DNA of 64,000 nucleotides from Betaproteobacteria bacterium (GCA_016194905.1 JACQAP010000005.1:205114-269113); one strand, 5' to 3'; counted from the stretch's first letter, positions 2,043 to 51,126 are shown. The notes: a model not told the origin generated them from the sequence alone. Program-made: numbers and translations.

Positions 2043-2099
2043 AAGGTGCATCAGACTTTCCCGTAGGTAGAGACAGGCCGGTGGGTGGCAAGACTCAAA

Positions 2100-2282
2100 A
2101 ACCACTCACCGCAAAGGACGCAAAGGACGCAAAGGACGCAAAGGTAAAGTCAAAGGCGAAGAAGGATACAAAAGCAATTTCCGTGAGCCAAAACCAACAG
2201 GCATGGTATTTTCCCGTCGAGGGTTGTCTCTCCCTGGTTTTCCTTCGCGTCCTTGGCGTCCTTTGCGGTGAATGTTTTTCCT
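2100..2282. repeat. Palindromic MITE-like element, copy 1 (arm unit gcaaaggac)
   Basis: Left arm tcaccgcaaaggacgcaaaggacgcaaaggacgc pairs with right arm gcgtccttggcgtcctttgcggtgaatg. The centre matches copies 2 and 3 in reverse orientation. Confidence 0.8.
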
Positions 2283-2356
2283 TCGTGACGTTGACCCTAT
2301 CCCGCAAGTCAGTGAAAATTAACCTCCGACCCACACGAAAATTGGATGAACATTTT

Positions 2357-2752
2357 TTAACGGCCAACGGGAATTACGCAGCGTCCGTTGATACATGCGG
2401 CCACCGGTTCCGGTAGTGCAACGCATGCGGCGACGGGAACTCCCCGCTTCTGCGCATCCTCGAGCGCAAAGTTGTATTCGGCGATCTTGGTTTCGAGCGC
2501 GGCCTTGTCGGTCGACCGCCAGGAATACGCGATGTATTCGGCCGGGCCGCCGCAGGCATTCGCGCCCAGTGCGGCGATCCGGCAGTTCACCAGATTCGCG
2601 CAAACTGCCGACCCCAACAGCACCGTGATGTCATTGCGCAGCCGCGCGAGTTCCACTTCCGCGCCGACGGCGGCCTTTTCATCTGCGCACACACCGCCGT
2701 TCAGGCCGGCCACCAGGACAATGCCAACCAGCAACCGAACCATCGGATTCAT
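2357..2752 (-). CDS. Small secreted Cys-rich hypothetical protein
   Basis: 131-aa ORF with an N-terminal hydrophobic signal-like segment (MNPMVRLLVGIVLVAGLNGGVCA) and GGGGAGG upstream of the ATG. No family recognised. Confidence 0.55.
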   Translation of the reverse strand: MNPMVRLLVGIVLVAGLNGGVCADEKAAVGAEVELARLRNDITVLLGSAVCANLVNCRIAALGANACGGPAEYIAYSWRSTDKAALETKIAEYNFALEDAQKRGVPVAACVALPEPVAACINGRCVIPVGR

Positions 2753-2889
2753 GCCAACCTCCCCGACTCGTCGGCTGCCACTATTTCACGTGAATGGCAG
2801 ACAGCGCAAGCTGCCGGCGGATTCGACTCGGACGCCGCTTTCTGAGAAAGTACCGGCCCTCGAAGCTTTTCGCAGTCCTCAACAAACCC

Positions 2890-3447
2890 ATGGCCCTCAA
2901 GGCAACCATTTTCAAAGCCGAGCTGCGCATAGCGGACATGGAGCGCGGCTACTACCACGATCACGCGCTCACCGTCGCGCGCCATCCGTCGGAGACCGAT
3001 GAACGCATGATGGTGCGGCTGCTGGTGTTCGCGTTGAACGCCGATGAGACCTTGGCATTCGGCGCCGGACTGAGCACCGACGACGAACCCGACCTGTGGC
3101 GCAAGGATCTGACCGGCAGCATCGAAACCTGGATCGACGTCGGTCTGCCCGACGAGAAACGCATCCGCAAGGCCTGCGGCCGCGCCGACGAGGTGTTCGT
3201 CTACAGCTACGGCGGCCATGCCGCGGAACTCTGGTGGCAACAGGTCGGCGACAAGCTCGCGCGGTCGAACAAGCTCACGGTCATCAATCTTCCGCAGACA
3301 GGTACGCAGGCCCTGGCCGGCCTGGCGGCGCGCAACATGCAATTGCAAGTCACCATCCAGGACGGACAGGTATGGGTGGCGGACGATCACGACTCGGTAC
3401 AACTGGACCCGAAAACGATTCTGGCGGCAAAACCCGAGTGGAGCTGA
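2890..3447 (+). CDS. yaeQ: YaeQ family protein
   Basis: N-terminus MALKATIFKAELRIADMERGYYHDHALTVARHPSETDERMM is typical of YaeQ. Start placed at the internal ATG of ORF 2794..3447. Confidence 0.85.
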   Translation: MALKATIFKAELRIADMERGYYHDHALTVARHPSETDERMMVRLLVFALNADETLAFGAGLSTDDEPDLWRKDLTGSIETWIDVGLPDEKRIRKACGRADEVFVYSYGGHAAELWWQQVGDKLARSNKLTVINLPQTGTQALAGLAARNMQLQVTIQDGQVWVADDHDSVQLDPKTILAAKPEWS

Positions 3448-3554
3448 GGTCGGCGTTGCCGCCAGCGCGGGATTATTCGAACGAATGCTGGTGAGGAGCC
3501 ACACCAAGTGGCATCGTAGTTTGCAAAAGTCCCGAATTGGGACTAACATGACTC

Positions 3555-3857
3555 ATGCGCGTCATTGCATTATCGACCCTCAAGGCATTCTGGGAGAACT
3601 CTTCAAAATATGACGACGCGGAACAGCCGACGTTGGTCTGGTACCGACACGTCCTTAAGGCCGATTGGGCATCGCCAGCAGACGTGAAGTCCCAGTTTGG
3701 TAGCGCCACTATCCTTGCGGATGGGCGTGTCGTGTTCAACATCGCCGGGAACAAGTATCGGGTGGTGGTGTGGATCAACTACGCGTACCGCGTCATTTAT
3801 GTCCGCTTCATTGGAACGCACGCGCAGTACGATCGGATCGACGCACAGACGATTTGA
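3555..3857 (+). CDS. higB: Type II toxin HigB (RelE-fold mRNA interferase)
   Basis: 100 aa with FNIAGNKYRVVVWINY and VRFIGTHAQYDRID, characteristic of the HigB_toxin family. The antitoxin gene follows after 13 nt. Confidence 0.85.
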   Translation: MRVIALSTLKAFWENSSKYDDAEQPTLVWYRHVLKADWASPADVKSQFGSATILADGRVVFNIAGNKYRVVVWINYAYRVIYVRFIGTHAQYDRIDAQTI

Positions 3858-3870
3858 AGGAACGTAGAGT

Positions 3871-4245
3871 ATGGAAATCAAGCCGATCAGGACCAAAGCA
3901 GACTATAAGGCCGCTCTCAAGGAGATCGAGTCGCTGATGGGCGCTCGCCGCAATTCCCCGGAAGGCGAGCGCTTGGATGTGTTGGTTACCCTTGTGGAGG
4001 CACACGAGCGCAAACACTTTCCGCTTGAGCTACCGGATCCGATCGAGGCCATCAAGTTCGCGATGGATCAACAGGGCCTGAGCGTGAAGGATCTCGATCC
4101 GATGCTGGGCCGCTCGAACCGGGTCTATGAAGTCCTGAACCGCAAACGACCGCTGACGCTCAAGATGATCTGGCGACTGCACAAGGAGCTCGGCATCCCC
4201 GCCGAGTGTCTGATCAGACCGCCGCAGCAGAGCGAGGCTGCCTGA
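3871..4245 (+). CDS. higA: Type II antitoxin HigA (HTH domain)
   Basis: 124 aa. Starts MEIKPIRTKADYKAALKEIESLM and carries a C-terminal HTH-like segment (NRKRPLTLKMIWRLHKELGIP). Adjacent to higB. Confidence 0.85.
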   Translation: MEIKPIRTKADYKAALKEIESLMGARRNSPEGERLDVLVTLVEAHERKHFPLELPDPIEAIKFAMDQQGLSVKDLDPMLGRSNRVYEVLNRKRPLTLKMIWRLHKELGIPAECLIRPPQQSEAA

Positions 4246-4288
4246 ATCACCGCGCTGGCAAATCGTATTGATCCAGAAGTTCTTCAGG

Positions 4289-4408
4289 GCACCATCCAGG
4301 ACGGACAGGTATGAGTGGCGGACGATCGCGCGTCGGTGCAACTGGATCCGAAAACCATTCTGGCATCGAAGCCCGAGCGGAGCTGAGGTCGGGGCTGCCG
4401 CCAGCGCG
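4289..4408 (+). pseudogene. Displaced yaeQ 3'-end fragment, copy 2
   Basis: Hand alignment to 3351..3470 (caccatccaggacggacaggtatg.gtggcggacgatc...gagctgaggtcgg.g.tgccgccagcgcgg). Includes the stop codon plus ~20 nt. Diverged. Confidence 0.8.
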
Positions 4409-4500
4409 GCAGATCACCATAGTTAAAGCCCTGATCCCCAACGTGTTCGCCTTCCCGCGGTTGTCGTGCATCGCTGCCGGGAGCGTAATACAATGGCCGG

Positions 4501-4755
4501 ATGAAAACTCTTACTGTGCGACTTCCCGAGGCGTTGGTGGCCGAGATTGAGGCGGAGTCTCGTGAACGCCGGCGCTCCAAGTCCGACGTGATTCGCGAAC
4601 GCCTGACCCGTGCAGAGAAACCGCGGACAAAAGCGCGATTGCCTGACTCGATTGCCGACTTGGTCGGTTCAGTGCCCTCGTTGTCTGCGGACTTGAGCCA
4701 GCGGAAGAAGGCGTATTTGAAGAGCACGGATTATGGCCGGAAACGTAATCGTTGA
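4501..4755 (+). CDS. Ribbon-helix-helix (CopG-like) antitoxin
   Basis: 84 aa starting MKTLTVRLPEALVAEIEAESRERRRSKSDVIRERL, an RHH pattern. Overlaps the downstream PIN gene. Confidence 0.75.
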   Translation: MKTLTVRLPEALVAEIEAESRERRRSKSDVIRERLTRAEKPRTKARLPDSIADLVGSVPSLSADLSQRKKAYLKSTDYGRKRNR

Positions 4756-5143
4756 TGCCGGCTTCCTCATCGCTTTACTGAGCCGCCGCGATACCCACAA
4801 CGCTTGGGCAGTGGCTGAATCGCCTAATTTTCCCTTGCCGTGGCTAACTTGCGACGCCGTTCTTTCGGAAGCCTTTCACCTGCTCGGAGCGCGCGGTTGG
4901 AGCGCTTTGGCCGCGCTTCTCCGGCGAGGCGCGGTAATCCCGACATTTGATCTTGGTGGTGAACTCGACAGAGTCCTGACTTTGATGCAAAAGTACTCGA
5001 GCGTTCCCATGAGCATCGCGGACGCTTGCCTGGTCAGGATGACGGAAACACTGTCCAATCCAATCATTCTCAGTACCGATAGGGACTTCCACGTGTATCG
5101 TCGCCACAGCCGGCACGTTGTGCCTTGCAGAACTCCCTATTGA
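4733..5143 (+). CDS. vapC: PIN-domain toxin (VapC-like)
   Basis: 136 aa with an N-terminal VIVDAGFLIAL acidic motif and a C-terminal ILSTDRDF motif typical of PIN nucleases. Overlaps the RHH gene by 23 nt. Confidence 0.8.
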   Translation: MAGNVIVDAGFLIALLSRRDTHNAWAVAESPNFPLPWLTCDAVLSEAFHLLGARGWSALAALLRRGAVIPTFDLGGELDRVLTLMQKYSSVPMSIADACLVRMTETLSNPIILSTDRDFHVYRRHSRHVVPCRTPY

Positions 5144-5205
5144 TGGTGGCGCATGACGGCAACCTCGCGGAGCATCGAGAGAGAGGGCATGGATAGCAAT
5201 GAGCG

Positions 5206-5446
5206 ACGGCGGCCACGCTGCGTGGGTCTGGTGGCAACAGGTCGGCGACAAGCTCGCGCGGTCGCACAAGCTCATGGTCATCGATCCTCCGCAGGCGGGC
5301 ACTGGCCGGCCTCGCCGCTCGCAACATGCAATTGCAAGTCACCGTCCAGGACGGACAGGTGTGGGTGGCGGACGACCGCGACTCGGTGCCACTGGATCCG
5401 CAAACTATTCTGGCGGCAAAACCCGAGTGGAGCTGAGATCGGCGTT
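5206..5446 (+). pseudogene. Displaced yaeQ 3'-end fragment, copy 3
   Basis: Hand alignment to about 3209..3458 of yaeQ (tggtggcaacaggtcggcgacaagctcgcgcggtc ... caattgcaagtcacc.tccaggacggacaggt). Contains a 9-nt deletion and many substitutions. Confidence 0.8.
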
Positions 5447-5618
5447 ACAGCGGCGTGTAGGATTCCGGCGTAATTTGATGGCCGAGATATGGCGGCGTAC
5501 TATCGTGGAGATTAAAAAAAGGAACTAACCCGGTTCCGGAGTGGGTGTGTGTTTCTATGCTCCCGTGTTACTTGAACGGGGGCTTCCTTTCTGAACTGAC
5601 ACGTGAGGTCCGATCAAA

Positions 5619-6335
5619 ATGCCAATATTGAGACGCCAAGGTTGGAGCCGGCTAGCCGTCGTCTTGACGTTGGCATGGATCGTCGGAGTAGTTGCATATA
5701 CGGCCGTTGTTTATCAACTGCGGTACTCTGAGTTGTCGGCACTGGGAAGCGGTATCAGCCCGAGCACCCGCCAGGCAGTAGGCCACGAAGGGTTTTTGGT
5801 GAAGTGCACTGAGGCTGAATCACAGGGCTTGTCGTGCGGACTTCGCTACAAAAACCTTCTGTGGCTTATCCTCGCGCCCCTTGGCGGCGCGTGGATTCTT
5901 GTGCCGGCGACGGTCATTGCCGTGAGATGGATCCAAGAAGGATTTCGCCCAGGCGACAAAGCAATTCACCCCGACGCCACACCACTAGAGCTTGGCGAGT
6001 TCATTACTCAAAGCCTCTTCGCGATTTTTCACGGCCTTGATCAGGCGAACCAGCGTGTTATCGCTGAAGGACAGACGCCCGAGTCTCTATTCTTTCTGAG
6101 ATACAGTCCAGACAAGAGCACGGGATCGGCCATAGAGTTCGATGTCGGAGTCATAGCTATGGCCGACACAACGAGTTATGCCAAAGCAGCGTTTAAGGTC
6201 GCAGTGTTTGAGGGAGCCCTCGGGCAAGCGTCTGCAACAAGCAGAGGGGCAGTGTCACGCATGAAATTTATCGTCTACGCCAAGCACTGGGACGGCTTGA
6301 ATGGCCCGCGGTCCGCCGAAAGAAAAAATGTATAG
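5619..6335 (+). CDS. Hypothetical membrane-anchored protein
   Basis: 238-aa ORF in a visibly lower-GC segment with two hydrophobic helices in the N-terminal half and a soluble C-terminal half. No firm family. Confidence 0.5.
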   Translation: MPILRRQGWSRLAVVLTLAWIVGVVAYTAVVYQLRYSELSALGSGISPSTRQAVGHEGFLVKCTEAESQGLSCGLRYKNLLWLILAPLGGAWILVPATVIAVRWIQEGFRPGDKAIHPDATPLELGEFITQSLFAIFHGLDQANQRVIAEGQTPESLFFLRYSPDKSTGSAIEFDVGVIAMADTTSYAKAAFKVAVFEGALGQASATSRGAVSRMKFIVYAKHWDGLNGPRSAERKNV

Positions 6336-6386
6336 CTTTACCCGTTGTTAACGAGCATCCGCCCCGCAGTCGGCGCAGGAAGAAAC

Positions 6387-6812
6387 ATGATGCACTCTCC
6401 AATCAGGGCACGTTCATTCGTCGCAACTCTTGGCATCCTGGTGGTATGGCTCAACATAGCCGCTGGCTGTGGAGGGCATTATGAGGTGCGAGAGAAAATC
6501 GATAGGACGCGCTACAAAACGGTGTACGTCGAGAAATTTGAAAATGATGAGTTTGACATGAGGCCGCGCCTCGAACAGCAAATGGTGGTTCTCGGTTTCG
6601 AGACGACTGGGGAAAAAGCGAAGGCAGATCTGACGCTCGTGTGGCGCTACACTCATGCCATGTTGGGCACCAATGCGTCAGTTCGTTTGGTGAACGCGGA
6701 AGGCAGGACGGTCTACCTTGGCGAAGGGGACAACCCGGGATTCGGCACTGCATTGAACAAGACGGGCGCAGTCTGGGGGTGCTTCGAGAGAGCCCTTGGC
6801 GGGTTAAGGTAG
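6387..6812 (+). CDS. Hypothetical lipoprotein
   Basis: Signal peptide with lipobox-like LNIAAGC, and AGGAAG before the ATG at 6387 (internal start of ORF 6345..6812). Confidence 0.5.
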   Translation: MMHSPIRARSFVATLGILVVWLNIAAGCGGHYEVREKIDRTRYKTVYVEKFENDEFDMRPRLEQQMVVLGFETTGEKAKADLTLVWRYTHAMLGTNASVRLVNAEGRTVYLGEGDNPGFGTALNKTGAVWGCFERALGGLR

Positions 6813-6921
6813 CAGCACGCATAGAACTCGGGTATCCCCCAGGGGGGGCTAGGGACAGGTGCTTACCTGCTAAAGCGACCGTACTCCGAAAATTGTGATC
6901 AAAAGATATTCGTGAAGTCAG

Positions 6922-7779
6922 TCAGTCTGAATTGGTGTCGGTGTTTTTTGCTTGCGCTCGTCGATCTTCCCATGCGTTCTTGATTACTGCGGCAATCCAT
7001 CCGAGTTCCCTTCCGATCATAGACCCGGCCACGACAAAGGCGATAAAGACGATGAAAGCCATGACGTAGTTGAAGGCGAAGAGAATCCCGCTGCCCAAAA
7101 TCCACAGCAAGATTGCGTAAACGAAGAAAGCGGCGTAACGCGGGAAGACGGTACCGGCTACGATGAAAGCGACTATGGGGGCAAGAGGAAGAATCCAAGG
7201 TCCCCACCCGGTCCCGACGATTCCGCCCACCCAGTTATCAATCCAAGTAAATATGCTTGCCCCGATGGCTTCAACCCATTTATCCAAAGGTCGCAAGAGG
7301 TTGGAAAATGCAGGCGCGTACACGATAAATAATATGACGCCCCCGATAATGCCGAAAGGATTTCCACTCTCCCTCGCCATCCAGCGGTCGATGCGAGTTT
7401 GTCTTAAGCGCTCACTTTCTCGGAGTTTGAATTCCGCCCATTCACTGGGATTCAGCTTGGTCTGGGTTCCGTCCCAGTTGGTAACAGTGGGGTCACGCCA
7501 ATTTGCGGGCGCCCAGCGTTTGAATGCTTGCAAACCGAGCAACACGAATATGAAGATGTACCCCATGGTGTCGAGCGCTCGTCCCCAAGTACCCCAGCGC
7601 CAGCTATCCGTTAACTCGAATAGATAGTCCAGCGGCAAAAACAAGAGGAACAGAACTGCTGCTACCAGCGCACCGCCCACGACCATGTAGACAGGGACGA
7701 GCAATGCCAGCCCTAGCCATTTGAACAGGCCAAGAAGTTGCGCCGGGAACCCGCGAATCCTTTGCAGGCGAGTATTCAT
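6922..7779 (-). CDS. Hypothetical polytopic membrane protein
   Basis: Start placed at MNTRLQRIRG, with GGAG 9 nt upstream, inside ORF 6922..7923. Many hydrophobic helices. Lower-GC segment. Confidence 0.55.
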   Translation of the reverse strand: MNTRLQRIRGFPAQLLGLFKWLGLALLVPVYMVVGGALVAAVLFLLFLPLDYLFELTDSWRWGTWGRALDTMGYIFIFVLLGLQAFKRWAPANWRDPTVTNWDGTQTKLNPSEWAEFKLRESERLRQTRIDRWMARESGNPFGIIGGVILFIVYAPAFSNLLRPLDKWVEAIGASIFTWIDNWVGGIVGTGWGPWILPLAPIVAFIVAGTVFPRYAAFFVYAILLWILGSGILFAFNYVMAFIVFIAFVVAGSMIGRELGWIAAVIKNAWEDRRAQAKNTDTNSD

Positions 7780-8030
7780 CGCGATTTTCTCCAAGGTCTC
7801 CGGTTCACTAAACACTCGCTGCTCGTGATGGTAAAGCGCGTTCAAGCTACTCGCTGGCGGCTGTGTGGTCAATGCCAGTGACTTCCCAGGTTGCGGAGTA
7901 GTTGCGTTGCCGGTAGCGTGCAAGAGCCAAGCAAATAGGGGTTTTAGCTTCCACCAGTTTCAGTGGAGTTGTATCAGCGCCGTTCAAGACACTGAAACAA
8001 CCTCAATCCAGTGCCCAGATTCATCCTGTC

Positions 8031-8062
8031 TGGCACTCTTGAGGGGATTCGAACGCCTCCCT
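8031..8062 (-). other. tRNA 3'-end-like fragment (T-arm, acceptor strand, CCA)
   Basis: Minus strand reads aggcGTTCGAATcccct-caagagt-g-cca: T-loop consensus, a 5-bp stem with one mismatch, a 7-nt acceptor strand, a discriminator and CCA. No D or anticodon arm found upstream. Confidence 0.35.
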
Positions 8063-8159
8063 CTCTCTTCGCGCCGCAACAGAACATGCTATGAAAAGCG
8101 TCATGCTGCATCCGATATTCCTGTGGATAGGGGAGGCATCTGCGGCTTAAGACTCAACA

Positions 8160-8337
8160 AGTATTCACCGCAAAGGACGCCAAGGACGCGAAGGAATACC
8201 GGGAGAAAATAGACCACGACGGGAGAGTACATAGCCTGCCAGCTCGGGCTCACGAGAACTGTCGTTTGTACCCTTCCTTGCTTTTGACCTGGACATTCCT
8301 TCGCGTCCTTGGCGTCCCTTGCGGTGAATGTTTTTCT
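8160..8337. repeat. Palindromic MITE-like element, copy 2
   Basis: Arms ttcaccgcaaaggacgccaaggacgcgaagg and ccttcgcgtccttggcgtcccttgcggtgaatg. The centre is similar to copy 3. Confidence 0.85.
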
Positions 8338-8428
8338 TTAGTGGACACCACCCGCCAGGGCGACTGTTAGACGCCTGCGATGTTCCGCGCCATAATGGCC
8401 GCTCCGCTTCGATCCAGGCCAACCGATC

Positions 8429-9253
8429 ATGAGCGCAACTTCCCTGACTTCCCTCGATACGCTCGCAGCGTCAATTCCCGACGGCGCAGTGCTTGCCGTG
8501 CCAAAGGATACTTCCGGCGTGGCGATGGCCGCGACACGGGCGCTGGCGCGCCGCGGCGTGCGCAATCTGCATCTGGTCTGCGTGCCGCAAAGCGGCTTGC
8601 AGGCGGATCTGCTGATCGGCGCCGGCGCGGTGACGACATTGGAAACTTCGGCGGTCACCATGGGAGAGTTCGGCGCCGCACCGTGCTTCACCGCGGCGTT
8701 GCGCAACCGCTCGCTGCGTATCATGGATGCGACCTGCCCCGCGATTTACGCCGCACTGCAGGCCGCCGAGAAAGGTATTCCCTTCATCCCGCTGCGCGGC
8801 ATCATCGGCACCGACGTGTTGCGCCATCGCACGGACTGGAAAGTCATCGACAATCCGTTCGCCGCCGGCGATTCGATCGTCGTGCTTCCGGCAATCCGGC
8901 CCGATGTCGCGCTGTTCCATGCACGCTGCGCCGATCGCGAGGGCAACGTCTTCATCGGCAGGGAACGCGAGGTGCTGCTGATGGCGCATGCCGCGAAGAC
9001 CACGCTGGTCACGGTCGAGGAAATCGTCGACGGCAACCTGCTCGACGACCCGGCGCGCGGCGGCGCCGTGCTGCCTTCCATCTACGTATCGGCCGTCGCC
9101 GTCGCGAAACGCGGCGCCTGGCCGCTGGCTTTTGCCGATCTGTATCCGATGGACGATGCGGCGATCGATCATTACATGACGCTGGCACGCAGCGCGGAAG
9201 GCGTCGCGCGGTTCCTCGCCGAGTGGGACAGCGGCGTGCAAGCCGCGGCATGA
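8429..9253 (+). CDS. CoA-transferase family, subunit A-like
   Basis: 274 aa resembling glutaconate/3-oxoacid CoA-transferase alpha subunits. Translationally coupled to the B-like subunit. Confidence 0.8.
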   Translation: MSATSLTSLDTLAASIPDGAVLAVPKDTSGVAMAATRALARRGVRNLHLVCVPQSGLQADLLIGAGAVTTLETSAVTMGEFGAAPCFTAALRNRSLRIMDATCPAIYAALQAAEKGIPFIPLRGIIGTDVLRHRTDWKVIDNPFAAGDSIVVLPAIRPDVALFHARCADREGNVFIGREREVLLMAHAAKTTLVTVEEIVDGNLLDDPARGGAVLPSIYVSAVAVAKRGAWPLAFADLYPMDDAAIDHYMTLARSAEGVARFLAEWDSGVQAAA

Positions 9254-9978: not shown

Positions 9979-10081
9979 CTGTTTTTTTTGGATCGGCCGA
10001 CTTTCATGTGGATCGAAAGTATGTTTGCATTGGCTTCCGGGATAGGCGCAGCAACGCGATGAGTATCCTCATAAATCTAAA

Positions 10082-10248
10082 ACATTCACCGCAAGGGACG
10101 CCAAGGACGCCAAGGAAAACGAAGTAGAACAGGCCTCGACGGAAGTATGCAGTGCCCGCCGCTTCGGGTTCACGGGTGGCTCTTTGTACTTTCCATGTCT
10201 TTGACTTTCCCTTGCGTCCTTGGCGTCCTTTGCGGTGAGGTCTTTTTG
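10082..10248. repeat. Palindromic MITE-like element, copy 3
   Basis: Arms cattcaccgcaagggacgccaaggacgccaagg and ccttgcgtccttggcgtcctttgcggtgagg. Confidence 0.85.
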
Positions 10249-10304
10249 ACTCTCACGCCCAACTTGCCTGTCTTCAATCTCGGGAAAGTCAGACGCACCT
10301 CTTT

Positions 10305-11045
10305 TTAATGGGCGAGGACCGCCGCACCCAGCATGGTCAGCCCGGACACGAGCAGCAAGCCTTCGATCAGCAGACTGAACTGTTCGGCCTTCAGTTTGAG
10401 CACCAGCCGCTTTGCCACGAAAGAACCGACCATCAGCGAGCTGCCGATGATCAGGCCCTTGGAGAATATGTCCATGGGCAGCGCCCCGAAGCTGCGAAAC
10501 ACGATCGCCTTGCTCGTATAGACCGCCAGCGAGCCCAGCGCCTCGGTCGCGAGGTAAGCGCCCTTGACCAGGCCCAGCGCCAAAAAGAAAGGGGCGTTGA
10601 TCGGACCGGTCGACACCACAATGCCGGTGATGTAGCCGACCAGCGCCCCGGCCAGCGCCAGTTGCCAGAGATTGATGCGCAGATTGTGCCCGGCCAGCCA
10701 GCGCCGTGCCGGAATCACCGCCAGGAAGAACAGGCCCATGGCAATCTCGATCCAGCGCTGCGGGATGGCCAGCAGCGTGGACGCTCCCAACGCTGCCGCC
10801 GGAACACCGGTCGCGGAATAGGCGGCGAACGCGCGCCAGTCAACGTCCCGCCACCACACCAGCGCGCGCGACGCGTTCGCCAGCAGCGCCGCCACCGCCA
10901 TGATCGGCACCGCTTCGCGCGGACCGAACAGGATCACCAGTACCGGCATCAGCATGATCGACGAGCCGAAGCCGATGACCCCGCCGAGCGTGCCGGCCAC
11001 CACGCCCAGGAGCAGTACCGCCAGCAGATCCAGGTGCAGGAACAT
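10305..11045 (-). CDS. TauE/SafE (TSUP, DUF81) family anion exporter
   Basis: 246-aa polytopic membrane protein with the Gly-rich repeated helices typical of TSUP transporters. Divergent from a LysR gene. Confidence 0.8.
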   Translation of the reverse strand: MFLHLDLLAVLLLGVVAGTLGGVIGFGSSIMLMPVLVILFGPREAVPIMAVAALLANASRALVWWRDVDWRAFAAYSATGVPAAALGASTLLAIPQRWIEIAMGLFFLAVIPARRWLAGHNLRINLWQLALAGALVGYITGIVVSTGPINAPFFLALGLVKGAYLATEALGSLAVYTSKAIVFRSFGALPMDIFSKGLIIGSSLMVGSFVAKRLVLKLKAEQFSLLIEGLLLVSGLTMLGAAVLAH

Positions 11046-11192: not shown

Positions 11193-12116
11193 ATGGAACT
11201 GCGGCAACTCGAATACTTCATCGCCATCGCGGAAACCGGTGCGTTCTCGCGTGCGGCCGTTCGCCTCTCGGTCGGCCAGCCGATCCTGAGCCGGCAGATG
11301 AAGGCGCTGGAACAGGAACTGGGCACCGAGCTCTACCATCGCACTGGCCGCGGCATCGTGCTGAGCGAAGCCGGAAAAATTCTCGAACAACATGCGCGCG
11401 GCGTCCTCGAAACCACCGCCGGTGCGCGGCGTGCGATCAATGCGCTGGGTTCCGCACCGGCCGGCCGCGTGGTGATCGGCATGCCGCCTTCGGTCGGTGC
11501 GGTATTGACGGACTCGCTGGTGCGCCAGTTCCGCGCCGAATTTCCGAAAGTCTCGCTCGGCGTCATGGAAGGCTTCAGCGGCCATGTTCTGGAATGGCTG
11601 ACGACCGGGCGTATCGACGTCGCCGTGCTGTATAACGCACCGCGCACCAGCGCGCTGGTGACCGATCCGCTGCTGACCGACGAGTTGTTCCTGCTCGGCC
11701 CGGTCGGCGATCCGGCCGGGGCCGGCAACGGTGACGTCGCCGCGTCGCATCTCGCCAGGATTCCGCTGATTCTGCCGAGCCGGCCTCACGGTTTGCGCGT
11801 ACTGGTCGATGATTTCCTTTCGGGAATCGGTGTCGCACCCAACGTGCAGGTGGAGATCGACGCGATGCCGTCCACGCTCAGCCTGGTCGAGGGCGGCATC
11901 GGCTATACGATCCTGTCGTATTCCAGCGCACACCATTTGATCGAAGCGGGCCGCATCAGGAAGTGGTCGATCGTCGACCCGACGATGACGCGATCGCTGG
12001 TGGTCGCGACCTCGACGCAACGGCCGGTGACCAAGGCCGCCAGGGCCCTGGTCGGTTTCGTGCGCAAACAGGTCGACACGCTGGTCGAAGAAGGACGCTG
12101 GGCGCCGAGAAGTTAG
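11193..12116 (+). CDS. LysR family transcriptional regulator
   Basis: N-terminal HTH MELRQLEYFIAIAETGAFSRAAVRLSVGQPILSRQMKALEQELG. Start placed at the internal ATG of ORF 11109..12116. Confidence 0.9.
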   Translation: MELRQLEYFIAIAETGAFSRAAVRLSVGQPILSRQMKALEQELGTELYHRTGRGIVLSEAGKILEQHARGVLETTAGARRAINALGSAPAGRVVIGMPPSVGAVLTDSLVRQFRAEFPKVSLGVMEGFSGHVLEWLTTGRIDVAVLYNAPRTSALVTDPLLTDELFLLGPVGDPAGAGNGDVAASHLARIPLILPSRPHGLRVLVDDFLSGIGVAPNVQVEIDAMPSTLSLVEGGIGYTILSYSSAHHLIEAGRIRKWSIVDPTMTRSLVVATSTQRPVTKAARALVGFVRKQVDTLVEEGRWAPRS

Positions 12117-12309: not shown

Positions 12310-13107
12310 TCATCCGATAGGATCGGCGTCGAGCCGCACGATCCAGTCTTCCATGCCGGCACGCGCGGCAGGATAACGGTCCATCACCAGCGGGTCGTGC
12401 CCGGGAATGATGTGCCGGGGCGATGTCGCCAGCCGGCGCAGGGTGTTGAATCCTTCGAGCATGTCGTTGAGATTGTAGAGAATCGGGAAAGCGCGATCCT
12501 GCTCCATGTGCGCATAGAAATGGCTGGCGTCGGAAGCCAGCACAACCCATCCCCTGCGCGTGCGCACGCGCACCGACTGCATGCCTTTGGTGTGCCCGCC
12601 GATATGATGTACCTCGATGCCCGGTGCGATCTCGGCCGGTCCATCGTGGAACTGGACGCGCTGGTCGAACACGCACCGCACCATATGCACCACGTCGTCG
12701 GCCTCGTAGCCGTGGCGCATCATGCCGTGGCACATGCAGCGGCCGGTGGCGAAATCCATCTCCTTGTCCTGCAGATGGTAGCGGGCGTTGGCAAACAGCG
12801 GAATATTGCCGGCGTGGTCGTAGTGCATGTGGGTGATGATCACGTCCTTGACCTTCTCCGGCTCGATGCCCAGCGCCTTGACGCCTTCCGCGACCGGCCG
12901 GACGATCTGGCGGTTGCGCTTCTTCGCCATGGTCTCGTTGAAGCCGGTGTCCACCACGATGCTGCGCTCTCTGTTCGAGACTACCCAGACGTAGTAGTTC
13001 AGCGGCATCTCCGTGTCGTGCGCATCACCGCCGATGAAGTTATCCGGCGAACGGCGCATCAGCCGGGCGTATTTGATCGCGTAGATTTCGTAAGATTCTT
13101 CCGTCAT
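12310..13107 (-). CDS. MBL-fold metallo-hydrolase (lactonase-like)
   Basis: HxHxDH motif ITHMHYDHAGN. Start placed at MTEESYEIYAIKY inside ORF 12310..13176. Confidence 0.8.
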   Translation of the reverse strand: MTEESYEIYAIKYARLMRRSPDNFIGGDAHDTEMPLNYYVWVVSNRERSIVVDTGFNETMAKKRNRQIVRPVAEGVKALGIEPEKVKDVIITHMHYDHAGNIPLFANARYHLQDKEMDFATGRCMCHGMMRHGYEADDVVHMVRCVFDQRVQFHDGPAEIAPGIEVHHIGGHTKGMQSVRVRTRRGWVVLASDASHFYAHMEQDRAFPILYNLNDMLEGFNTLRRLATSPRHIIPGHDPLVMDRYPAARAGMEDWIVRLDADPIG

Positions 13108-13144
13108 CGTCCTGCTCTCCCGCGTCTGTTGCGTCGATGGCAGT

Positions 13145-13534
13145 TTACTTCTTCTCGTTGCGATCGAATTCGGCAAAGGTTTCCTTCGCCACGCGGAAGG
13201 CGTCCACTCCCGCCGGGATGCCGCAGTAGATCGCGACCTGCAGCAGCACTTCGCGGATTTCGGCCCTGGTCACGCCATTGCGTAATGCGCCGCCGATGTG
13301 CATCTTCAGTTCGTGCGGCCGATTCAGCGCGGAGAGCATCGCCAGGTTCAGCATGCTGCGGGTTTTCTTCGGCAGTTCCTCCCGGCCCCATACCGCGCCC
13401 CAGCAGTATTCCGTAGTGAGCCTCTGCATCGGCATGTTGAAGTCGTCGGCGGCGGCAATGGATTTTTCCACGAACTCGGCGCCGAGCACGGACTTGCGGA
13501 TTTCGAGACCCTTCTTGAACAAATCGTCATTCAT
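13145..13534 (-). CDS. Carboxymuconolactone decarboxylase family protein (PcaC-like)
   Basis: 129 aa with TRSMLNLAMLSALNRPHELKMHIGGALRNGVTRAEIREVLLQVAIYCGIPAG, typical of the CMD family. Confidence 0.85.
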   Translation of the reverse strand: MNDDLFKKGLEIRKSVLGAEFVEKSIAAADDFNMPMQRLTTEYCWGAVWGREELPKKTRSMLNLAMLSALNRPHELKMHIGGALRNGVTRAEIREVLLQVAIYCGIPAGVDAFRVAKETFAEFDRNEKK

Positions 13535-44780: not shown

Positions 44781-44868
44781 TGATGACCAATCATCTTCAC
44801 CTCGCCTTGCAGATGGGCGATGTGAACTCTCGGCGGGCATGCAGAACCTGTCGTTTCGATATACCCGC
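44781..44868 (+). pseudogene. Internal fragment of a RAYT/IS200-like transposase gene
   Basis: Hand alignment to 50282..50370 of the intact gene (HUH region SNHLHLALQ.GD...SAGMQNLSFRYTR): about nine mismatches and one 1-nt indel. Confidence 0.75.
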
Positions 44869-50077: not shown

Positions 50078-51126
50078 CCTGCATAATTGGATAATCTTCA
50101 TGTATCCTCCGTCCTATGGCTCGCAAACCCCGCCTGCACGTTCCCGGTGGTCTGTATCACGTCATCTTACGCGGCAACGCCGGGCAGGATGTGTTCTTCT
50201 CTGCGGGTGACCGGCGCTTCTTCTATGAATTGCTCGCCGAAGGCGTAGTCCGCTTCGGCTACCGGGTGCACGCCTTCTGCCTGATGAGCAATCATCTCCA
50301 CCTCGCTTTGCAGGTGGGCGATCTTGCACTGTCGGCGGGCATGCAGAACCTGTCGTTTCGCTACACCCGCTATCTCAATACGCGACTCAAGCGGTCAGGA
50401 CATGTATTCCAGGGACGCTTCAAGGCTTTCCTGGTGGATCAGGATCGCTATGGGTTGGCATTGGTGCGCTATCTCCATTTGAATGCGGTGCGCGCGAGAA
50501 TGGTCAGGCAACCCCGTGCCTACGCCTGGAGCAGTCACCGCGCTTACCTCGGCGAAGAGGACTTGCCCTGGCTCACGACGGATTGGGTGCTGGGACAATT
50601 CGGCGAACGGGTCGAGCCGGCCCGGCAGCGCTTTGCCGCCTTTGTCGACGCCGGTGCTCGCGACGGCCATTCGGAGGTGTTCTACGGCGGGCAGGCGGAT
50701 GGCCGGGTGGTCGGGGAGGAAGCTTTCCTGAAGAAGGTGCTGAAGGTGCTCCCCAAGCGAGAAGCGAAGCGCAAAGCCCCATCGCTCAGGCAGATCGTGG
50801 CCTATGTGTGCGACGGTTACGGACTCACGGAAGGGGCGCTCAAGGCGCCGGGCAAGGGCCGGCAAACGGCGCAGGCGCGCGCACTCATCGGCTGGCTTGC
50901 GGTCCGGTTTCGTTCGTGCACGCTTGCAGAAGTCGCCGAGCATTTCTCGCGCTCCCCTTCCACGCTAAGCCATCTTGTCGCCAACCTGGAGAAGCTTTCG
51001 CACAGTTCCGGCCAACCCGCCGATGCGCTGCGAAAACATCTATTCACACTGCAGGTCTGACATCCTTTTACTTTTCTTTCTTTTACTGAGGCCTAGATCT
51101 CACTTCCGTTTATGCAATTATGCAGG
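50078..51126 (+). mobile_element. RAYT unit: Y1 transposase gene bracketed by a 17-bp imperfect inverted repeat
   Basis: cctgcataattgGataa (50078..50094) is the reverse complement of ttatGcaattatgcagg (51110..51126) with 16/17 matching. Confidence 0.55.
50116..51060 (+). CDS. REP-associated tyrosine transposase-like protein (IS200/IS605 Y1 HUH family) with C-terminal DnaA-C-like HTH
   Basis: LYHVILRGN, HUH motif SNHLHLAL, RYLHLNAVRARMV. C-terminal RALIGWLAVRFRSCTLAEVAEHFSRSPSTLSH resembles the DnaA domain IV-like HTH seen in this transposase family. Confidence 0.8.
   Translation: MARKPRLHVPGGLYHVILRGNAGQDVFFSAGDRRFFYELLAEGVVRFGYRVHAFCLMSNHLHLALQVGDLALSAGMQNLSFRYTRYLNTRLKRSGHVFQGRFKAFLVDQDRYGLALVRYLHLNAVRARMVRQPRAYAWSSHRAYLGEEDLPWLTTDWVLGQFGERVEPARQRFAAFVDAGARDGHSEVFYGGQADGRVVGEEAFLKKVLKVLPKREAKRKAPSLRQIVAYVCDGYGLTEGALKAPGKGRQTAQARALIGWLAVRFRSCTLAEVAEHFSRSPSTLSHLVANLEKLSHSSGQPADALRKHLFTLQV

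Follow-up and report, generated by a model that had tools for sequence, protein, structure and literature searches.

How can several small operons come to be stacked behind one gene, each followed by a piece of that same gene, when no recombinase is found beside them? This question is raised by the yaeQ locus in a 64,000-nucleotide (nt) stretch of DNA from Betaproteobacteria bacterium (GCA_016194905.1, JACQAP010000005.1:205114-269113), which is called the window here. The 3' end of yaeQ occurs three times in direct orientation, and each of the two intervals holds a different predicted toxin-antitoxin (TA) operon. Comparison with related genomes indicates that the operons were added stepwise, the newest next to the intact gene. 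How they arrived is discussed below for a handful of loci by sequence analysis; the reading that we prefer, at somewhat less than an even chance, is that the cassettes spread between related strains, the tail of yaeQ serving as a homology arm on one side only.

The intact yaeQ gene (2890-3447, plus strand) encodes 185 residues with a full-length match to the Pfam family YaeQ (E = 3.4e-79), and its product is 90-93% identical to many metagenomic YaeQ proteins; more than 50 proteins reach an identity of 85% or above. A repeat search, blastn and alignments delimited copy 1 of the repeat at 3205-3470 (plus strand), which comprises the last 243 nt of yaeQ and 23 nt past the stop codon. Its part 3351-3470 recurs as copy 2 (4290-4409, plus strand; blastn and translation), with 97 nt of coding sequence, the 23 nt beyond and 88.3% identity (blastn, E = 1e-37). 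Copy 3 (5202-5458, plus strand; blastn and alignments) is equivalent to the whole of 3205-3470; 5202-5446 was 86.6% identical to 3205-3457 (blastn, E = 3e-83) and the alignment extended the similarity to 5458. All three copies point in the same direction, group within the window's own yaeQ clade and have the TGA stop (3445-3447, 4384-4386 and 5434-5436) followed by about 23 nt. Copy 2 contains a TGG to TGA nonsense change and copy 3 an 8-nt deletion that shifts the frame, so both are dead pseudogene fragments. The right ends of homology coincide for the two fragments at 23 nt past the stop (+23; 3470, 4409), whereas the left ends differ (3205, 3351). An earlier note, made from the sequence alone, had described a triplicated, directly oriented and diverged gene end, and had named insignificant similarity in a formal alignment as grounds for abandoning this; the blastn values bear the description out, and its coordinates were accurate to a few bases.

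The interval between copies 1 and 2 is filled by a higBA insert (3471-4289, plus strand), the youngest layer (layer 3), which is missing from the otherwise collinear relative L002. The toxin gene higB (3555-3857, plus strand; 100 residues) matches the RelE-fold toxin domain Pfam HigB_toxin over residues 23-95 (E = 2.3e-29; 101.9 bits, cut-off 27) and has 6807 homologues, mostly of 100 residues. It is followed 13 nt downstream by a 124-residue open reading frame (ORF), a higA-like antitoxin gene (3871-4245, plus strand) with a putative helix-turn-helix (HTH) region, for which the HTH_3 match was weak (17.8 bits, under the cut-off of 23). The partner is conserved in the loci L162 and L165, in L162 at the same position and length, and the pair is a predicted HigBA type II TA system. 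The interval between copies 2 and 3 holds layer 2, the RHH/PIN insert (4410-5201, plus strand; collinear with L002 5206-5984). It encodes an RHH antitoxin (4501-4755, plus strand; 84 residues; 27.1 bits for Pfam RHH_1, cut-off 20.5) and a PIN-domain toxin (4733-5143, plus strand; 136 residues; 26.7 bits for Pfam PIN, cut-off 23.6) that has 5690 homologues, mostly of 136 residues. The two ORFs overlap by 23 nt in a VapBC-like arrangement, with the antitoxin gene ahead of the toxin gene. All four TA ORFs are intact and have the lengths of many homologues, and the Pfam matches agree with the interval contents given in the earlier note. The two cassettes are unrelated families, and local tandem duplication of one yaeQ-cassette block, which would have given identical cassettes, was therefore rejected.

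The window falls within a clade of Burkholderiales that are uncultured, and the relatives that we found are almost all metagenome-assembled genomes (MAGs) or metagenome contigs. In four of them (L174-L177; YaeQ 90-91% identical), hppA, a small gene, yaeQ and a CoA-transferase gene follow each other, this last core gene starts as little as 77-89 nt past the yaeQ stop, and the site is empty. Window 2776-3465 aligned to L174 up to position 6918, and the window from 8353 onwards aligned from L174 6913. Since these alignments meet and overlap across the empty site, window 3471-8363 (4.9 kb) is inserted DNA; its G + C content is 53-60%, against 61-69% outside. The intermediate state was found in L002 (YaeQ 91%), where yaeQ is followed by RHH/PIN, a yaeQ fragment, the left end of a further block (Z-left) and different cargo, without higBA and without copy 2. 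On its left the L002 fragment breaks off at the position found for copy 3, and its distal junction is identical; copy 2 is the positional orthologue of the intact gene end of L002. Because L002 contains RHH/PIN and the fragment without higBA, accretion was stepwise with the newest cassette at the gene.

The oldest layer (layer 1) is block Z (5459-8351, no strand assigned), which is missing from the empty sites of L174-L177 and has a G + C content of 53-57%, against 61-69% in the flanks. Its left end, Z-left (5459-5583), is common only to the window, L002 and L161, and the cargo beyond it differs between the genomes; judged by this distribution, the sequence following copy 3 is not native downstream DNA. 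In L161, yaeQ is followed by Z-left and then by a higBA cassette with a HigB 93% identical to that of the window, and the contig ends inside higA. As read from these states, the empty gap was filled in at least three steps, first with Z, then with RHH/PIN and then with higBA, each addition being made next to the intact gene. The serial capture of TA operons at yaeQ that had been proposed is thus supported by just the comparison that had been recommended for it, in which yaeQ loci with an empty site, with RHH/PIN only and with both cassettes were found.

The fragments occurred only in L002 among 160 yaeQ loci (61-91% protein identity; genome and metagenome scans, self-comparison), and L002 is from the window's own clade, so that yaeQ does not appear as a general TA hotspot. 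Close relatives carry alternative cargo, without mobility genes, between the same two core genes. In L178 (8842-10457) the gap between yaeQ and the CoA-transferase gene holds a CsoR/RcnR-like metal repressor gene and a CDF cation-efflux gene, and in L179-L186 (L179 2163-2300) an element of about 115 nt, palindromic in sequence (CACCGCAGAGGCGCAGATACCC...GGGTATCTGCGTCCTCTGCGGTG), lies there. On its right, this alternative cargo always ends just before a TTAGAC promoter-like box. What serves as a hotspot is the short interval from yaeQ to the CoA-transferase gene, not yaeQ in general.

The insertion point in the window lies 23 nt past the yaeQ stop, directly upstream of a conserved promoter-like site (TAGACG, 17 nt, CATAAT; 8368-8396, plus strand; promoter scan) of the CoA-transferase gene (8429-9253). 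This site is conserved immediately to the right of every insertion in L002, L174, L177, L178 and L179 and forms the right limit of the dispensable gap; from the stop codon to the promoter-like site, the dispensable DNA is only about 23 nt. Within these 23 nt lies a 12-nt motif, CCGCCAGSGCGR, at 12-23 nt past the stop. Exact motif searches found it on the plus strand at 3459-3470 (CCGCCAGCGCGG, directly after which all inserted DNA starts), at 4398-4409 at the end of repeat copy 2, as a diverged copy near 5447-5458 at the end of repeat copy 3, and, where the inserted block as a whole ends distally, at 8352-8363 (CCGCCAGGGCGA). As the motif recurs at this distal end, there are four junction copies and not three. 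Only one further occurrence exists in the 64 kb outside the junctions. The empty site in L174, with which collinearity stops at 3465, has a single, diverged copy. The candidate core that had been suggested earlier, gagctgag.tcgg, is merely the conserved gene end; the motif that is repeated at the junctions is CCGCCAGSGCGR.

These repeats are what would be expected of site-specific tandem accretion, in which a tyrosine or serine recombinase, encoded elsewhere or lost, acts on the short core CCGCCAGSGCGR. Elements would have come in one after another at the proximal site once it was reconstituted. The layers would then be recombinase-less remnants resembling cis-mobilizable elements (CIMEs), of which only the addictive TA operons survive, and the fragments would be parts of the attachment regions that deletions have trimmed. 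We consider this explanation unlikely on the whole, but it is the alternative with the most in its favour. The three layers share one insertion point, the motif stands at 3459-3470, 4398-4409 and 8352-8363 and, as in CIME accretion, core repeats occur at each junction and a single diverged copy in the empty site. The newest element lies at the gene, as in known 3'-end accretion (PMC5704250, PMC7563491).

The search for a recombinase speaks on the other side. No integrase or transposase was found among those window ORFs that were tested, a part of all ORFs. A crude tblastn probe with XerD and the catalytic region of lambda-Int gave no hit in the window and no integrase next to yaeQ across about 185 loci. 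Its only hits were a XerD orthologue 8 kb from yaeQ (L140) and an integrase 5 kb away (L090), which is separated from yaeQ by housekeeping genes. Elements that insert behind the stop codon have no need of 97-243 nt of coding sequence, and the two fragments start at different points. Shared element ends, another mark of CIME accretion, were not observed: the cassette copies elsewhere share only the operon, and one end is the remnant of a foreign gene. The insertions in L178 and L179 lie at other offsets (about +15 and +0), which fits a gap limited by selection rather than one core. Integrative elements carrying a replacement 3' end for a yaeQ-specific integrase, as invoked earlier for this locus, are not demonstrated, given the tested ORFs without an integrase, the differing left edges and a distal joint that is illegitimate.

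Integron cassettes or XerCD-dependent pdif modules, with the fragments serving as attC- or dif-like sites, were also considered. Chromosomal integrons and the pdif modules of Acinetobacter typically carry TA pairs of about these dimensions, and distant relatives of the higBA operon (66-68% nt identity) are found on Acinetobacter and other plasmids. However, the fragments did not show an attC-like fold (DNA folding z-scores 0.0 to -1.6), no pairs of the R-box type RYYYAAC...GTTRRRY were found at the locus, no dif-like 11-6-11 motif (XerC arm, XerD arm and core) matched within 2 mismatches in 3401-5650, and no intI was found. The repeats are also plainly yaeQ coding sequence, and this explanation is effectively refuted. 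A DDE or other transposon with target-site duplication was rejected, as inverted repeats were not found at the cassette borders and the duplications, of 120 and 266 nt, are long and diverged. Plasmid origin was set aside in the same way, because the plasmid relatives of higBA are only distant and RHH/PIN has none at the DNA level.

The ends of the cassettes were then informative. The conserved RHH/PIN operon spans 4461-5198 and has relatives in other contexts (L166-L173) with 76-86% nt identity. Downstream of the operon lies a SAM/Guanylate_cyc gene in L166 and a SAM-domain gene in L171, both of which begin with ATGGA(T/G)AGC. In the window and in L002, the cassette ends with the first 10-17 nt of such a SAM/nucleotide-cyclase gene (ATGGATAGCA..., from 5189), and this remnant is fused to yaeQ at the microhomology AGCnAnGGC (donor AAGCAATGGC, target CAGCTACGGC). 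With a foreign-gene remnant joined to yaeQ at a microhomology, the RHH/PIN cassette has no defined element end; as read from these sequences, its distal junction is an illegitimate joint and not an element terminus. Under site-specific accretion, an internal deletion could instead have brought the SAM-gene remnant up against yaeQ.

For higBA the conserved operon extends over about 3514-4255, starts from a -35-like TTGCAA (3521) and is 84-92% identical to the cassettes in L161-L165. Across five contexts the conservation begins exactly at the -35 element, and this sharp start suggests selection for function rather than the terminus of a mobile element. The flanks 3471-3513, 4256-4289 and 4411-4460 are unique and had no match among the compared loci apart from L002. 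For 3471-3513, 4246-4288 and 4411-4460, an origin as diverged native downstream DNA was rejected, because their alignments were no better than those of shuffled sequences and only L002 contained a match.

Two side observations concern relatives of the RHH/PIN operon. In L166-L170 a second TA pair (DUF433 and PIN_10-DUF5615) lies upstream of RHH/PIN, bracketed by a 39-nt direct repeat of 95% identity (for example L166 279-317 and 1014-1052), and the array precedes a SAM-domain/AAA/guanylate-cyclase gene. In L172 an RHH/PIN operon with 82% nt identity to that of the window has a complete TPR-S/MAP3K_TRAF_bd gene on one side and, on the other, 281 nt that repeat an internal part of this gene (90%; 1282-1562 and 3237-3517) and run off the contig end. 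L172 may be a mirror-image case with a duplicated 5' part, or it may contain tandem paralogues.

The microhomology at the distal RHH/PIN junction also fits a duplication-insertion in situ. A replication fork or broken end would stall about 23 nt past the stop, switch template by microhomology to a TA operon, copy about 0.8 kb, for example from a plasmid, and switch back within yaeQ, after which the distal copy would decay. Such an event makes a recombinase unnecessary, leaves remnants of foreign neighbour genes in the filler and gives duplications of varying length (120 and 266 nt here, 76 nt in L071 and 199 nt in L165, two loci described below). In its favour, copies 1 and 2 are also nearly alike behind the stop codon, with differences at just 2-3 of 23-24 sites. 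We nevertheless regard this origin as quite improbable, because two independent events would have to stall at one nucleotide and because the differences between the copies are not those of a decaying duplicate.

The latter point was examined by the ratio of nonsynonymous to synonymous differences per site (pN/pS). At 12-40 substitutions per comparison, pN/pS was 0.10-0.23 between functional alleles and 0.26-0.44 between gene end and fragment, whereas about 0.55 or more would be expected had one of two initially identical copies decayed. Copy 2 and the fragment in L002 share four clustered changes (GCATCGAAGCC) that are synonymous or conservative. They give a LASKPE-type tail, and an end of the type ...LASKPEWS exists in functional YaeQ proteins. 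Judged by these substitutions, the data suggest that the fragments are former working ends of different yaeQ alleles. Both the low pN/pS and the allele-type differences common to the two fragments argue against duplication in situ.

The cassettes were further found to be less diverged than the backbone in which they lie. Between the window and L002 the synonymous divergence (dS), computed from genes of small size, was 0.12 for RHH and 0.23 for PIN, compared with 0.36 for hppA, 0.47 for yaeQ and 0.62 for the CoA-transferase gene; between the window and L161 it was 0.24 for higB and 0.44 for yaeQ. Cassette values of 0.12-0.24 against 0.36-0.62 in the flanks indicate that the cassettes moved between the lineages after their split. 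The empty-site genome L174 is as close to the window as L002, or closer. Exchange between strains would therefore be needed even if the duplications had arisen in situ.

Is the architecture confined to yaeQ? In L165 the 3' end of an alpha/beta-hydrolase-like gene is present twice, as 199-nt copies of 89% identity, and these enclose a higBA operon 84% identical to that of the window. The copies (23-217 and 1229-1421) each have their own 1-nt indel, and about 195 nt of unrelated sequence, apparently including the tail of another gene, separate the first copy from the cassette. In L071, a MAG of the Gallionellaceae that was found by an unbiased self-comparison of 1.48 Mb, a ParE toxin/Phd antitoxin pair (10192-10791, minus strand) is flanked on one side by an ion-channel gene's end and on the other by a repeat of the final 76 nt of that gene (83%; 9988-10065 and 10849-10926), and a HicA-like gene then follows. 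Eight of the 11 changed codons between this gene end and its fragment are synonymous, and frame and stop are kept; differences so nearly restricted to synonymous sites again speak against duplication in situ. As the higBA family lies at a different gene with a different repeat in L165, the cassette is not tied to one attachment site, contrary to what site-specific accretion would predict. A yaeQ-specific element, which the earlier note had implied, is likewise not demonstrated, since related higBA and ParE/Phd cassettes show the same architecture at other genes.

Further short inserts with diverged flanking repeats of 39-281 nt were seen in L093, L145, L166-L170 and L172. The inserts in L093 and L145 are bracketed by diverged direct repeats of 76-190 nt. 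One repeat pair in L093 (3254-3360 and 4240-4350) flanks an ORF right after yaeQ that by eye resembles an IS200-like/RAYT transposase, and these repeats are probably repetitive extragenic palindromic (REP) sequences. The other (6179-6577 and 7546-7933) encloses an ORF6N-domain gene, and its repeats include the end of a HigA-like gene. In L145 a RhuM-family gene lies between the repeats 11883-11958 and 13077-13152.

Because the relatives are almost all derived from metagenomes, and the window probably likewise, we also weighed an assembly artefact in which strain variants of the region downstream of yaeQ were threaded through shared k-mers of the yaeQ tail. The exact YaeQ protein of the window is not on record elsewhere, and the junction between higBA and copy 2 (4289/4290) is seen in the window alone, as L161 ends inside higA. 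On the other hand, the junction between RHH/PIN and the fragment is reproduced base for base in L002, a MAG assembled independently in a different study. To make a chimera, reads would have to connect sequence distal to higA with the interior of yaeQ, and lesions specific to the fragments, such as the nonsense change and the 8-nt deletion, are unexpected in strain variants of a live gene. Analogous structures exist in independent assemblies (L071, L165), and an artefact is very improbable.

We now return to the yaeQ tail as a one-sided homology arm. A TA operon would first have landed behind yaeQ in some strain by illegitimate recombination, and the persisting remnant of a foreign neighbour gene points to its having been cut from another context. 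DNA from this donor strain would then enter a related strain by transformation, transduction or conjugation. Because the strains differ beyond +23, only the yaeQ side would offer homology, and one RecA-type crossover in the yaeQ tail, either with a Campbell-style circle or as homology-facilitated illegitimate recombination, would integrate the cassette. The crossover would duplicate the arm: one copy would complete the gene and the other would stay distal to the new cassette and decay. Addiction (post-segregational killing) would keep the operons intact amid the erosion around them, and the direct repeats would permit later excision, re-integration or exchange. The outcome would be an integron-like ordered array without an integrase or any dedicated recombinase.

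The shared right ends and variable left ends of the fragments fit homology arms of arbitrary length that end where donor and recipient diverge. The same reading explains the allele-like fragments, the young cassettes, the missing integrase and the recurrence at other genes. A more general form of it, which we put forward with greater reserve as a doubtful though conceivable extension, is that small selfish operons may travel between related bacteria with the 3' piece of a neighbouring core gene as a portable, one-sided homology arm. A single crossover made by the host would place each cassette ahead of those already present, and so stack ordered, integrase-free arrays with the newest cassette proximal.

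Several observations weigh against a one-sided arm. Three independent layers begin at the same nucleotide (+23) and the 12-nt motif stands at every junction and at the far end, which is exactly what a site-specific recombinase would produce. With homology arms, the coincidence at +23 is explained only by a shared homology boundary together with selection for a tiny neutral gap. No donor genome was found that combines yaeQ, the +23 point, the same unique flank and the cassette, and L161, the sole relative with a close higBA, has a different junction (after Z-left). The pN/pS values draw on the few substitutions given above, and gene conversion between the copies could distort them; for the orthologous fragments, copy 3 and that of L002, pN/pS was 0.45 rather than about 1. 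A crossover at about 3205 in the intact yaeQ was considered as well, as the difference to L174 is 4.4% upstream and 11% downstream of this point. The shift is explained by the stretch of about 3280-3350, which is hypervariable in all pairs, and we did not count it as evidence.

Some features of the island and its surroundings lie outside this argument. Block Z contains three ORFs (5619-6335 and 6345-6812, plus strand; 6922-7923, minus strand), for which no family matches were obtained in Pfam, PADLOC or PHROG. Within Z-left lies a terminator-like hairpin on the minus strand (5521-5537; GGAACCGGGTTAGTTCC followed by TTTTTTT), and from 10-45 nt to the right of it the window, L002 and L161 differ in their cargo, so that just past the hairpin there is a second variable point. 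Three intergenic copies of a palindromic element (about 200 nt; arms CGCAAAGGACGCAAAGGACGC... and ...TCCTTCGCGTCCTTGGCGTCC) are present at 2090-2290, 8149-8343 and about 10084-10238. Its sites are vacant in L174, which lacks counterparts of window 2043-2369 and 9980-10310; the copy at 8149-8343 is part of the inserted block and abuts the distal junction motif of the yaeQ island. Related palindrome arms occur in L002, L006 and L161. The element looks like an active miniature inverted-repeat transposable element (MITE) or REP-like element.

Elsewhere in the window an 89-nt direct repeat (44781-44868 and 50282-50370; 88.8%) encloses about 5.4 kb that encode a methyltransferase-like protein of 984 residues, a GajA/AAA_15-like ATPase (a short ORF) and a protein for which PADLOC gave a TIR-effector-like match. 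Of the two repeat copies, the distal one lies within an IS200-like gene with Y1_Tnp and DnaA_C-HTH domains (50116-51060), and the proximal one is an isolated fragment of a gene of this kind. This block may be a second insert in the window that is flanked by a gene fragment.

How TA operons without mobility genes enter a genome is an open point, and the yaeQ locus makes one-sided homologous integration testable. Its scars are kept: a common entry point, unequal arms, a microhomology joint, allele-like fragments and cassettes younger than the backbone. From these a signature can be derived for genome-wide searches, namely a short insert together with a diverged copy of the tail of the upstream gene. 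Under either mechanism, homology arm or recombinase, the ladder gives the relative ages of the cassettes, which are rarely available, and if a trans-acting recombinase is responsible, the 12-nt motif would be a new attachment site. If the homology-arm reading is true and general, as hinted by L165, L071 and possibly the other fragment-flanked inserts, islets that lack a recombinase would be put together in nature by a route so far unrecognised, and the decaying gene-tail copies would be a built-in stratigraphic record. Literature searches for yaeQ with TA systems and for TA cassettes with duplicated gene ends retrieved no description of a ladder of gene-tail fragments.

The closest known systems are TA-only islets between core genes, for which the mode of integration was called unclear (Belot et al. 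2026, PMC13617665). Their spread through homologous recombination in the core genes that flank them was proposed in the same paper, which also cites a model of stepwise acquisition and streamlining (Hayes and Van Melderen 2011, here as cited in PMC13617665) and reports at one islet locus a duplicated 24-bp palindrome resembling the Tn3 res site. The yaeQ locus is like these islets in that type II TA operons, single or in clusters, occupy a high-turnover spot between two core genes and have no mobility genes beside them, and in that addiction outlasts the neighbouring genes. It is unlike them in that it keeps scars from which the order of events and one-sided homology can be read; PMC13617665 reports no gene-end ladders.

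Tandem accretion at gene 3' ends (reviews: PMC5704250, PMC7563491) is known for integrase-bearing elements and their remnants, for example the integrative and conjugative elements (ICEs) ICESt1 and ICESt3 at fda. As in ICE/CIME accretion, direct repeats of the 3' end of the target gene stand at the junctions of the yaeQ island, the newest element lies by the intact gene and recombinase-less remnants are kept. In contrast to it, no integrase is detectable at yaeQ, the repeats of 120-266 nt have differing left ends, the units are 0.8 kb, one of them is fused illegitimately to the start of a foreign gene, and the same cassette family uses the ends of other genes elsewhere. The prophages e14 and phage 21 at icd of E. 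coli insert within the coding region by their own integrase and replace the 3' end. They likewise leave a displaced, diverged pseudo-3'-end of 100-200 nt at the far side of the insert; at yaeQ, however, the DNA went in behind the stop codon, so that the gene does not need the duplicated coding sequence for its rescue.

The minimal mobile elements (MMEs) of Neisseria hold variable cargo between fixed conserved genes. Hotspots that are driven by recombination and have no mobility genes are also known (Oliveira et al. 2017, PMC5635113). The yaeQ gap is like both: it is empty or holds CsoR/CDF genes, TA arrays or a small palindromic element, and homologous exchange is presumed. In hotspots and MMEs a double crossover swaps the cargo without duplication, whereas the yaeQ ladder implies additive, one-sided events.

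Homology-facilitated illegitimate recombination was reportedly described by de Vries and Wackernagel in 2002 for naturally transformable bacteria. What is known of Campbell-type and homology-facilitated integration comes chiefly from constructs made in the laboratory and from selection experiments, and we know of no description of either as a natural route by which TA operons are stacked. The yaeQ locus resembles them in having one homologous anchor and a microhomology joint, and in such integration a single crossover duplicates the anchor.

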